64,000 nucleotides of DNA, from the NCBI GenBank assembly GCA_963758635.1, contig CAVWWD010000007.1, positions 192,001 through 256,000 of the forward strand, in the 5' to 3' direction. Below, in pieces: positions 4,007 to 9,733 of the stretch. The translations under genes were made by a program, and so were the position numbers. A model generated the notes under the pieces. That model had not been told where the DNA came from, made no database searches, and saw nothing but the letters and a program-made list of their open reading frames with translations. Within the stretch, counting starts at the first letter, position 1. Each line of letters begins with the position of its first letter. This DNA comes from an uncultured Candidatus Rokubacteria bacterium (lineage in GTDB: Bacteria > Methylomirabilota > Methylomirabilia > Rokubacteriales > CSP1-6).

Positions 4007-4042
4007 CCCCTCTCCCCTCCGGGGAGAGGGCAGGGTGAGGGG
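4007..4042. repeat. REP-like palindrome (CCCTCTCCC-loop-GGGAGAGGG-CAGGGTGAGGG), intact copy
   Basis: Hairpin read directly from sequence; inverted relative to a second copy starting at 4103. Confidence 0.8.
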
Positions 4043-4102
4043 CGGTCGTACCACCGCGCCGGGTCGCCCGCCGAGGGTCGATCGTCGAGGTGGCGCCACC
4101 GA

Positions 4103-4124
4103 CCCTCACCCCGGCCCTCTCCCT
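4103..4124. repeat. Left half of a second REP-like palindrome interrupted by IS110 (right half at 5575-5589)
   Basis: CCCTCACCCCGGCCCTCTCCCT joined to GGAAGGGAGAGGGGG rebuilds the hairpin. Confidence 0.8.
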
Positions 4125-4157
4125 GCTCAGAAAATGACGGGTGAACACGGGCTCCTG

Positions 4158-5355
4158 TTAGGCAGCGGGTTCGAGCATTACGCGATAGCCCTGACGTTGG
4201 AGCAGCTCGACGGCGCGACGGGTGATGCGGTGAGATGGCGACGGTCGTAGTAGTCGGGGCCGGGGTCGCAGGAGCGACGCTAGCGAGGATGGATAGACCG
4301 CTGGGAGCATGGCATGGGCGACGGCGACGACAGCCTTTGTGCCCGATGGCGCTGATGCGGCGGTACGCGCCGCCAGGGCGCATTTGGTGCGGATGGCGGG
4401 CAGGGCCGCTTCGATGAGGGCATGCGCGACAGCGGTTGCCCTTCGAATCTTGCTGAGTGTGCTGACCACGCTCTGCCGATTGCCGGGGCAGAACCGACCA
4501 GCGGCGAGATGCCGGCACTGGGAAAGGGGCGCTGTCCAGCCCGATCCGCGAGGAGGACCTCCGCCGTGCGGCGAGCGATCCCCGGCACCGTGTCCAGCTG
4601 GTGCAGCTGGCGCGCGAAAGGGGCCAGGGCGTGTCGACCTCCGCGCTGACCGCGGCGATCGCCTCGTCCAGGTACTCCAGATGGGCTAACAGTTGCCCGA
4701 CAAGAAAGGCGTGGTGGGGCCGGAACCGCCCCGCGAGCGCTTGGCGCAGGGCAGCCAGCTTCTGCGCAACCGGCCCCGCGCCAGGTCGGCCAGCACCTCG
4801 GGATCGGTCGTGCCCTGCACCAACGCCTCCAGCATGGCGCGGCCGAGACCCCCAGGATGTCGGTGGCCACCGAGGCCAGCTAGATGCCGGCGTCCTGCAA
4901 CAGCTTGTGCAGGCGATTGGCCGCCCGCTGGCGCTCCTGGATCACCACCTTGCGGTGCCGCGTCAGATCGCGCAGCTCTCGAATCGCGGCGGGAGGCACG
5001 AAGCTGCCCCGCAGCAGCCCGTGCTCCAGCAGTTGCGCGATGCAGATGCAATCCAGCCGTCGGTCTACCGGCCGGGGACTTGCTTGATGTGGGCGGGATT
5101 GACCAGCAGGCACGTGCCGATCTCTTCGAGGACGTAGAACACGGGCTTCCAATACACGCCGGTGCTCTCCATCGCCACATCCGTGACGCCGTGCGCCTGC
5201 AGCCAGTCCCGCAACAACAACAACTCGGCCGCCATCGTCCCGAACGTGCGCACATGTTGCTCCCGCTCGCCCCGCGGGCCGGGCACGCGTACGCACGCGG
5301 CCACACTGTGCCGGTGCACGTCCAGCCCTGCGCAACGCTCGATCTGTCGCTCCAT
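4158..5355 (-). pseudogene. IS110 DEDD transposase/recombinase with multiple frameshifts and stops
   Basis: MERQIERCAGLDVH, VAMESTGVYWKP, LVNPAHIKQVPGR, GSFVPPAAIRELRDLTR, LDTVPGI, KAVVAVAH, LQRQGYRVMLEPAA spread over several frames. Confidence 0.9.
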
Positions 5356-5394
5356 CCCGCGCCTCCCCCCGGTCATAGTCGCCGCGGCCGGAGG

Positions 5395-5530
5395 AGCCTC
5401 CCTTTGCACGACTCTGCTCGGCGTGCTCAGACACGCAACAATGCGGGGTGCCGAAAGCTCCCACGTCAGACTGGAACCAGACTTGCCCCCGTACCATGGA
5501 GAGGGCGACGTTGCCCGGCCCGCGGCTGGC
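5395..5530 (-). ncRNA. Putative IS110 bridge RNA (target- and donor-binding loops); limits approximate
   Basis: Four ordered segments match the target flanks (5498-5506, 5471-5476) and the element ends (5449-5454, 5424-5431), with flanking short stems. Confidence 0.65.
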
Positions 5531-5590
5531 GCGATGGTAGCCCTTTTCATGCTGCAGGGTGCGCCTCGGCAGCTGGAAGGGAGAGGGGGT

Positions 5591-6781
5591 GTAGAACAGC
5601 GGGCTGTTCGAGGGGAGGCCGAGGACGGTGCGGCCGACCGCCTCGTAGTTCACGAACTGGAGCTGGTTGTGGCGCGTGACGACCTCGGCGTCGCGCGCGT
5701 AGCGCTCGAGCGGGCTCGACGTGAAGATCGACGTGGTGCCGGCGGTCGCGCACACCATGTGGGTGGCGGCGGCCGCGCTCTGCGCGGCGTGGGTCATGGC
5801 CAGGCGCAGGTCGGCGCGCTGGCGCTCCGTGACGGGCTGCGCGGCGAGCACGGTCTGCCACATGTCCGCGACCACGTCGAAGAGGAGCGCCCGCCCCGAG
5901 CGCAGGATGGCCTCGGCCTCGCCGATCTTCGCCTGCACGATCGCGCGATCGCGCAGCAGCTCCGAGGACGAGCGCGGCACCTTCACCTGCGCCAGCTCGA
6001 CGAACGCGTCGATGGCCGCGCGCGCCACGCCCAGGCCCACGCAGCAGAAGCCGCAGCCGGCGAGGTCGAAGCCGTGCATGCGGTTCATCGGCCCGGTGAT
6101 CCGCGCGCGACGGTCGAGCGCCGAGAACGTCCGCTCCTCGGGCACGAACAGGTCCTCGACCTCGATGTCGTGGCTGCCCGTGCCGCGAAGCCCGCTCACG
6201 TTCCACGTGTCGATGATCCGCGCCTGGGCCTTCGGGTAGAAGTAGGCGATCCGCACCTCCTGCTCGCCGTGCGGGGTGAGCCGCGGCGTGTCGCCGTCGA
6301 ACACCTTGCACGCCCCGTGGAGCGCGGACGAGTGCATGCACCCGCTCGCGAAGAACCAGTGCCCGGTGACCCGGTAGCCGCCGGACACCGCCACCGCGCG
6401 GCCGCGCGGGTTCGCGGACCCGGCGGAGATGCCCACCGGGTCGCTGAAGAAGATCTCGCGCCGCACGTCCGGAGCGAACTGCGCGCTCTGCCGCAGCGTG
6501 TTGATCCCCATGGCGAGGCACCAGCCCGCGGACCCGTCGGCCCGCGCGATCTCCTCGATGACCTGGAGCGTGGTGACGACGTCGGCGCCGAGCCCGCCCT
6601 CGCTCTCGGGCAGGGCCACGCGGAAGAGCCGCGCCCGCGCGATCTCGGCGACGAGGGCGGGGGGAAGCTGGCGCGTCGCCTCGATCTCCTCGGCCGCCTC
6701 GCGGACGCGGGGCGCGAGGGCTCGCGCCACCTCGAGCGGCCGGGCGGAGGCGGGGATACGCGCGCCGATCTCGGTCACCAT
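5591..6781 (-). CDS. Acyl-CoA dehydrogenase-fold flavin-dependent monooxygenase (HsaA/indole oxygenase-like); expected stop reads TAC
   Basis: ARADGSAGW, GYRVTGHWFFASG, DTWNVSGLRGTGSHD, SPLERYARD; family-like sequence ends at SPLF. Confidence 0.85.
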
Positions 6782-8739: not shown

Positions 8740-8814
8740 CGCCGCCCCGCTCCACAGCCGCAGGTACCGGTGGCTGCGCGCCCGGGACACCAACCGCACC
8801 CAGGGGAGCTCGCC

Positions 8815-9658
8815 ATGCCGACCATCGACGCCCAGGTGCACGCCTACGAGAGGAACCACCCCGGCCGTCCCTGGGCGGCCGTGCTGCACGGGCCGCCCGA
8901 GGTCACCGGCGACGACATGGTGGCGGCGATGGACGCCGTGGGCGTGGACGGCGCGCTGCTCGTCTCGCCGTTCACCATGTACCGCGTACGACGCGAGCTA
9001 CGCCGTCGAGGTGCACGCCCGGCATCCTGGCCGGTTCGGGCTGATCAAGCCCGTCGATCCGTCCGATCCTGGCGTGGCCGACACCGTCGCGGACTGGGCG
9101 GCGACCCCGGGCGCCGTCGGCATCCGCATCATGATGAACCGCGGCGTGTCCGAGGACCCCGCCGATCCTGGCATCAACCGGGTCCTCGCCGCGGGCGCGC
9201 GGCACGGGCTGCCGGTGAACGTGCTGTGCTGGGGCCGCCTGGAGCAGGCGCGGGAGATGGCGGTGCGCAACCCCGACACCTCCATGGTGATCGACCACCT
9301 CGGCCTCCAGCAGCCGTTCGAGCCGCCGCCGCCCGCCGAGCCCTTCGCGGACCTGCCGGGCGTGCTGAAGCTGGCGGCGTGCCCGAACGTCGCCATCAAG
9401 ATCACCGGCGCGTGCACGCTCTCGCACGAGACCTTCCCCTATCGCGACATCTGGGGCCCGCTGGGGCGCATCTTCGACGCCTTCGGCATCGGGCGCTGCA
9501 TGTGGGGCACGGACTGGACCCGCGCCGTCGGGCTGCTCACGTACCAGCAAGGGGTCGACGCGTTCCGCGTGACCGATCGCCTGAGCGAGAGCGACAAGGC
9601 CACGCTGATGGGCGGAACGCTCGAGCGCCTGTACCGGTGGTCGCCCGGGAAGGCGTGA
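8815..9658 (+). CDS. Amidohydrolase_2 family protein (apparent frameshift near 8985)
   Basis: IDAQVH, MDAVGVDGALLVS, VIDHLG, CMWGTDW split over two frames. Confidence 0.85.
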
Positions 9659-9733
9659 CCCTGGAGCGGATGGGCGCCGGGCGCCGGCTGCGCCGCGCCG
9701 TGGTATAGAAGGGCGCATGGACAGGTGCCTGCG

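Follow-up and report, generated by a model that had tools for sequence, protein, structure and literature searches.

IS621 and ISCro4 (PMC11208160, PMC11208158; PDB 8wt6, 9t56) are described, in the available text of these reports, as having a recombinase with a DEDD and a serine domain, a two-loop RNA in the 5' end, a CT core, a handshake of the target loop to donor positions 6-7, a right donor arm of 5 nt and a REP as target. We found the same traits in an IS110 element at positions 4125-5574 of the window (the whole 64,000-nucleotide stretch of DNA analysed, from an uncultured Candidatus Rokubacteria bacterium), which lies inside a CT-type REP and has its transposase on the minus strand. 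It differs from IS621 and ISCro4 in that the CT strand is antisense to the gene, the left-donor guide is not directed at the adjacent bottom strand, asymmetric repeats of 6-7 bp are found instead of 2-3 bp ones, no signal of a donor-loop handshake with the target was seen, and about 60 more residues lie between the two domains. With the IS1111 seekRNA elements, as described in the accessible part of PMC11187229, it shares sub-terminal inverted repeats, as well as target guides in reverse strand order to ISEc21. In contrast to those elements, the RNA is located upstream of the gene, a distance of about 33 nt and not 7 separates the left repeat from the core, and the long non-coding end is not downstream of the gene (the non-coding ends are of about 220 nt on the left and about 33 nt on the right).

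The likeness to ISPpu9 of Pseudomonas putida KT2440 includes an AG core on the transposase strand, a REP/BIME target and an internal promoter, for which the present element has a candidate; the REP and the host are different, and ISPpu9 has the extra Asr9/Ssr9 RNAs. REP targeting and the AG core on the transposase strand have already been published for ISPpu9 (PMC12288879). By our count on Table S2 of that paper, ISPpu9 also has a palindrome from +7 to +22, starting 7 nt inside the left end, and a repeat of 6 bp that lies 5 nt from the right core and has a mirror copy at +36, and the recombinase of its cluster showed the same motifs by eye. The ISPpu9 start site was placed near +84, the element ending about 80 nt upstream of the mapped start (PMC8450116, available text), so that there the palindrome is present as DNA and not as RNA. 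Its authors call the palindrome 'intriguing', in a group without end repeats, and no fold-back model is found in the available text (PMC12288879).

ISArsp3 (the ISfinder name on NZ_CP059854; our locus L177) has a 46% identical recombinase and the same layout of ends and guides. Elsewhere, in the published material available, it appears only as a leaf of a tree, among table rows. We know of no mechanism proposed for it. The element belongs to this group of IS110 recombinases of 400-450 aa (ISArsp3/ISPpu9-like), with a bridge RNA aimed at one REP subtype.

Insertion in a REP and condition of the window copy

Excision of the element in silico produced a site with six exact copies elsewhere in the genome, which correspond to empty sites, showing that the element inserts without a scar into a specific target, at a short core. 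This agreed with the first-pass annotation, which had placed CT at both junctions (4123-4124 and 5573-5574, plus strand) and had proposed that removal of the element rebuilds the target. The left half of the REP (the left target in IS621 naming; 4101-4122), matched by the guide at 5496-5506, and the right half (5575-5589) are both on the plus strand, and the core reads AG on the transposase strand. Since the target is palindromic, the right arm on the CT strand could pair with the left-target guide as well (4113-4122 and 5575-5587), so that reading from a single strand would be possible for the target, too; most targets of the homologs were non-palindromic.

The palindromic repeat was present in 116 genome copies, and a stricter REP pattern separated 32 CT-type from 78 CC/CA-type copies. 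Two of the 32 CT-type REPs were occupied, as against none of the other 78, both genome copies of the element being in CT-type REPs. The neighbouring unoccupied REP (4007-4042, minus strand), with CC at the core position, was found as annotated and is the inverted partner of the target REP in a BIME/REPIN-like pair; 23 of the 32 CT-type copies had an inverted CC-type partner within 120 nt. Genome-wide, the two REP subtypes (4007-4124 in the window) occurred as inverted pairs about 90 nt apart, resembling BIMEs or REPINs. No orthologous empty locus was found, the NIPSNAP neighbour being missing in the 13 examined orthologs of the flanking gene.

The recombinase gene (4158-5355, minus strand) is broken, with 14 frameshifts, all of them deletions, and two stops, as counted against relative P0003. 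Its pieces matched Pfam PF01548 (IS110 recombinase). The closest full-length relatives, intact and of 409 aa, two of them named from Methylomirabilota/Rokubacteria, were 89-90% identical over the N-terminal 96 aa; they contained PF01548 and PF02371, scored 288-292 bits with NCBIfam NF033542 (cut-off, 140) and had both the DEDD RuvC domain and the Tnp domain with the catalytic serine of IS110 enzymes. The second genome copy (L001, G000:C12:228386-229480; 95% identical), also in a CT-type REP, had two frameshifts and one stop, at places other than those of the window copy, and had lost the left end and the start of the gene. In this copy the left target flank abuts codon 62, the left end and the bridge RNA being deleted.

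The damage was compared with contigs of four short-read runs from three studies, each covering part of the element. These contigs had extra letters at at least seven places in the gene, and both stops were absent from them. Two contigs from two studies (X1 record 6 and X3 record 23) spanned the left junction and continued in the same REP, being 10 letters longer there than the window; once those listed for X3 are put in, the left end starts core-TC and the family palindrome is rebuilt. Near-identical short-read contigs thus restored, as predicted, the handshake bases and the palindrome that are missing in the window. The circle junction of the first-pass annotation had been built on a left end without these 10 bases and does not hold; a circle-junction motif was not found in the genome assembly, nor was a joint of this kind listed for the short-read material compared, which consisted of assembled contigs only. 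Assembly error, the likelier cause for much of the damage, is probably responsible at least in part, and decay of the window copy may be the alternative, because the contigs derive from other samples. The window copy itself is ordinary apart from its easy readability.

At 5591-5593 (minus strand), where all 13 examined orthologs have a stop, the flanking gene, which is acyl-CoA dehydrogenase-like, carries a sense codon and therefore reads on into the element. The difference is a G for a C, the same type as the commonest differences between the window and the contigs. An amidohydrolase-like ORF at 8770-9708 was seemingly split over two frames, possibly by an assembly indel.

Bridge RNA fold and guides

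Homologous insertions were collected from 167 loci. After three from unpublished genomes and 62 without both ends were discarded, 102 remained, of which 83 were parsed; removal of six with unmatched cores gave 68 unique insertions, and 66 when the window and L035 (from an unpublished genome) were set aside. All 24 plasmid loci (13 + 11; L189 was left out) were parsed. The homologs were named from Methylomirabilota, Nitrospirota, Actinomycetota, Bacillota, Chloroflexota, Pseudomonadota and Cyanobacteriota; no relative of the element was found in the viral contigs searched.

RNAalifold analysis of 46 left ends (including L035, from the unpublished genome G254) predicted two loops, each with an outer closing stem and capped by an inner hairpin, in agreement with the two-loop bridge RNA that had been proposed for the 5' end. 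The consensus contained 17 pairs, with 98% of cells paired and seven pairs with changes on both sides, and none of 500 shuffles scored as high. The putative bridge RNA extends over 5381-5526 (minus strand), its limits being set by a closing stem between 5520-5526 and 5381-5387. A search for RNA evidence yielded nothing usable, one RNA run sharing a fraction of 0.05 of the words. An ACGTC/GACGT stem noted in the window proved to be real (helix 1; 96% of cells paired, both-side changes in four of six pairs), and a CGCA/TGCG internal stem was missing from the 46-sequence consensus. In the donor loop, the 5' arm of the outer stem (5451-5454) pairs with 5409-5412 (helix 3; 97.8% of cells paired, both-side changes in two of three pairs) and the inner hairpin occupies 5423-5439 (helix 4; 100% of cells paired), all on the minus strand. 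The single-sequence fold of the window end was uninformative (z 1.34), and a search of Rfam gave two chance-level matches only.

Guides were scored as matches at a fixed register against a null from permutation among distinct guides. The left-target guide (5496-5506, minus strand) matches the REP at 10 of 11 positions, the mismatch being the first core base, and scored 3.56/6 in the family against 2.13 (48 distinct guides). The right-target guide with the core and a 2-nt handshake guide (5469-5477, minus strand) scored 4.17/5 against 1.40 (42 distinct guides), and the two bases that follow it matched the first two left-end bases (1.86/2 against 1.07), for which the handshake of IS621 is the comparison (PMC11208158, available text). 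In the 66 homologous insertions the left and right target guides paired with opposite target strands, and the core on the transposase strand was AG in 53, AA in 12 and AT in one, in keeping with a CT core opposite to the transposase strand. A CA core, considered from the CATG/GAGCA shared by the homologs, was dropped when the second guide showed flank, AG and 2 nt. The right-donor guide was located by covariation at 5414-5421 (minus strand, core included), and the 5-nt right donor arm that it reads at 4125-4129 (plus strand; 5.07/6 against a null of 2.88, 30 distinct guides). A handshake of the donor loop with the target gave no signal in the homolog permutation test (0.67 against 0.61). At the level of sequence covariation, the target loop was shown to read both target arms and, through the 2-nt handshake, the first two left-end bases, and the 3' donor guide to read the right end. 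The element is almost certainly an RNA-guided, REP-targeted IS110.

The first-pass annotation had named four guides in the window, and all four segments were present where it placed them; when the bases of the 218-nt end were shuffled 20,000 times, the segments arose with frequencies of, in order, 0.0015, 0.03, 0.08 and 0.002. Its expectation that they would covary with the flanks was borne out for the two target guides, the left-target segment at 5498-5506 and TTCCAG (5471-5476, core plus right target), both of which lie in guides that follow the flanks of the homologs, so that the programming of the REP target by the target loop stands. It failed for the two donor guides. TCGGCA (5449-5454) consists of the 5' arm of the donor-loop outer stem and two guide bases, and TCTGAGCA (5424-5431), most of which falls in the inner hairpin, holds the 3' arm of the inner stem of that loop; both motifs were unchanged in homologs whose donor ends differ.

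The left-donor guide and the left end

More interesting is the left-donor guide, which in this clade departs from the rule of IS621 and is directed at an internal site, contrary to the left donor arm and the IS621 donor geometry that had been proposed. This guide (5441-5450, minus strand) is same-sense with 5552-5561 (minus strand) and not with the bases beside the core, so that the plus strand of the internal segment is complementary to it, at 8 of 10 positions in the window. The match to the bases beside the core, as in IS621, was 2.29/8 against a null of 2.83 in the first set (n=21) and 2.37 against 2.76 in plasmids of cultured bacteria (n=19 distinct guides), and on independent pairs that rule had four for and five against. 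The match to the internal segment was 7.52/10 against 5.82 in the first set (n=21), 7.56 against 5.36 in a cultured-plasmid set of 43-54% identity (n=9) and 6.0 against 4.34 in a second plasmid set reaching 33% identity (n=10); the pooled plasmid sets gave 6.74/10 against 4.63 (n=19 distinct guides, cultured bacteria), the register rule having been fixed from the first set and the plasmid elements inspected by eye before their parser was written. Registers shifted by 3-6 nt gave p values of 0.05-0.49. When 21 phylogenetically independent pairs from the recombinase tree were compared, 10 were for the match, one was against it and 10 were ties (p 0.006). The match reached 10/10 with one looped base in Alicyclobacillus (L169) and 9/10 in Chlorohelix (L176). 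A column-wise search for partners was swamped by relatedness; position 8 of the guide was the one position for which the expected column ranked first.

The matched segment is located inside the left end, about 20-30 nt from the core. Because the 5' donor guide matches this segment, both donor guides are complementary to one and the same strand, the CT strand, as the covariation of the homologs showed. The right guide gave no pairing signal at the internal site (1.92/5 against 2.17, n=12; 2.56 against 2.42, n=25), and the internal site is therefore not a full second donor site.

Between the core and the segment there is a palindrome, whose start is at +7 or +8 in 42 of the 57 ends compared (L035 included) and whose arms form 31 distinct pairs in these 57; in the window its remains and a 6-nt spacer are at 5560-5572 (minus strand), with eight letters fewer than in the near-identical short-read contig. 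Sub-terminal inverted repeats of 6-7 bp follow, the left copy 31-42 nt inside the end (5544-5548, minus strand, one base short in the window) and the right copy 5 nt from the core (4130-4136, plus strand). The two copies covaried (5.07/6 against a null of 4.04, 15 distinct repeats), and the left one was placed 6-7 nt after guide position 8 in 55 of 57 ends (L035 included). When the left end was folded about the centre of the palindrome, the distance between guide position 8 and the core was 0-2 nt in 51 of the 66 ends, as compared with a mean of 5 and a maximum of 10 in 60 shuffles, and this mirror register was kept where the hairpin grows to 23 nt (L178 and L181). The first automatic hairpin caller was noisy, and the counts were taken from its replacement. 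By inspection, most modelled circle junctions fold into a long hairpin.

A proposed folded donor strand and its alternatives

The comparison with relatives points to a branch in which the element's own end is read as a folded-back single strand and not as ordinary double-stranded DNA. We give about an even chance to a donor consisting of one strand folded into a pseudo-duplex, with which both donor guides would pair. The CT strand with its ends joined, as a single-stranded circle or as an arm extruded from a duplex circle, would fold back; the terminal palindrome would form the left duplex arm and the two sub-terminal repeats would pair to give the right arm, leaving a bubble of roughly 13 x 12 nt between the arms with the core on one side and the partner of the left guide on the other. 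Such a bubble would imitate the 14-nt opened duplex of IS621 and would match the 7+2+5 donor window. The recombinase would cut after CT and exchange only the CT strand with the target, and the second strand would be completed by replication (copy-out/paste-in), because a cut in the stand-in 'bottom strand' would sever the element. In integron attC sites and in the ends of IS200/IS605, one strand folds into the substrate and replication completes the second strand; these depend on recognition by protein only, by unrelated enzymes, whereas in the fold proposed here recognition of both sides would fall to RNA guides. That a broad IS110 branch is hard-wired for single-strand transposition, its bridge RNA reading both sides of the folded strand, has in our estimate slightly less than an even chance. 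As assembled, the window copy cannot carry out the proposed fold-back mechanism.

The IS621-type partner was at or below the null in every set, as expected if the bubble must stay open, and two preprints describe, in their available text, single-strand excision and top-strand integration in other IS110s. Several observations count against the folded strand. The match of guide and segment is imperfect, often with one looped-out DNA base, and weak (4-6/10) in a distant proteobacterial group of 33-35% identity; non-Watson-Crick pairs in the stems showed no strand bias (four G.T, five A.C, six others); and the junction energies of the two strands barely differ, being lower for the CT strand in 35 and for the other strand in 21 of 58. 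With a length of 5-8 bp, the arms of the fold may not suffice for the tetramer. As far as the available text goes, CazIS110-1, an element of this or another clade, used a duplex donor about 20-fold better at one junction, and a point mutant of the left-end palindrome of ISPpu9 gave correct minicircles by PCR, a readout of circles and not of integration (PMC12288879). ISPpu9 probably belongs to the proposed fold-back branch, as judged by end geometry and by motifs compared by eye.

The left-donor guide may instead serve self-regulation, the RNP binding the internal segment as duplex and repressing or unwinding it where it overlaps the -35 of an internal promoter, and the donor being read as duplex DNA by half-match (right guide, core and handshake). 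This would fit all the guide covariation, because the base pairing is the same as in the folded strand, and a TANNNT hexamer, the candidate -10 (5534-5539, minus strand in the window), stands 9-11 nt after the G of the repeat in 39 of 55 ends, a constant distance which places the -35 in the segment; a sigma-70 promoter scan gave no site. In the available texts, the left end of ISPpu9 has a native promoter and the palindrome mutation was tolerated in excision, and half-match activity is reported for IS621. We nevertheless consider self-regulation unlikely, since it leaves unexplained both the mirror register of palindrome, segment and sub-terminal repeat (51/66) and the below-null IS621-type partner; the right guide does not pair at the internal site, which is therefore not a full second donor site. 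A mostly duplex donor, in which only the short palindrome is extruded as a cruciform, protein binds the repeats at two places, as in IS1111, and the internal segment, held by the left guide, is a remote anchor that aids the opening of the left arm, agrees with palindromes that are nearly perfect and have no strand bias, as for a cruciform, and with sub-terminal repeats as a known duplex feature of IS1111 (PMC11208160, available text). However, with the palindrome alone extruded, the left repeat would still be about 19 nt from the core, as opposed to 5 nt on the right, and the one-to-one mirror of repeat and segment would be a coincidence, which makes this arrangement improbable.

That the likeness of guide and segment is a relic of an old duplication or conversion, the left-donor guide having no present function, is in our view very unlikely: the matches are imperfect and 10 of the 21 independent pairs are ties, but guide and segment vary in step over at least five phyla, with proteins 43-54% identical, and 10 of the 11 informative pairs agree. 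Least credible is an IS621-like element with four guides reading the target and the donor arms directly beside the core. Its target half is correct, and TCTGAGCA matches the right end at 8/8 positions with the shuffle frequency of 0.002 given above, but both named donor guides are paired scaffold that does not follow the ends in homologs, its left arm is absent from the near-identical contigs, and the canonical left-guide match is below the null.

Pairing of a left-donor guide to a fold-back was not found in the available text of the IS110 literature (PMC11208160, PMC11208158, PMC11187229, PMC12288879, PMC8450116 and PMC13626964) or of the preprints 10.1101/2025.05.14.653916, 10.64898/2026.08.14.744561, 10.1101/2025.10.25.684509, 10.64898/2026.03.19.712850, 10.64898/2026.08.31.748434, 10.64898/2026.10.21.760802 and 10.1101/2025.01.17.633520; the search was made without figures, preprint supplements and subscription journals, and priority is not assured. 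In the last of these preprints, circles were lost in the mutants AbB1 and AbB2, which concern matches of the 5' region to the left end (available text). If the donor strand is indeed folded, these elements would be integrases that are programmable, guided by RNA and suited to single-stranded donors, comparable to integron cassettes but with RNA as the guide, and this would matter for the way in which such genome-editing enzymes make copies of themselves; a donor of this kind would suit delivery by oligonucleotides or ssDNA vectors. It would also offer an explanation for the unexplained palindrome of ISPpu9. A 2026 preprint, in its available text, treats the strandedness of IS110 circles (single or double) as an open question, and the left-donor guide of this clade, pairing only with the cleaved strand, would give a direct genetic handle on it. 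Pipelines for tool mining look for donor guides next to the core (donor windows of 25 nt are mentioned in the text available), and would under-call or mis-program this group.

Some of the homologous insertions had features of their own. By eye from the flanks, the targets of L005, L006 and L008 are the last codons of a repeated gene, and those of L192, L195 and L197 lie inside the frameshift A-runs of other IS elements. Intact genes with the left end replaced by unrelated DNA were seen in L004/L038 and L047, the whole non-coding end being gone in L004 and its terminal part in L047. The right ends of L070, L073 and L170 had a few extra bases that repeat the right-end/core motif before the guide-matched flank, which suggests offset or repeated joining. 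Finally, L175 (NZ_CP138516) contained copies of the element in tandem, with a short spacer resembling the target at their joint.
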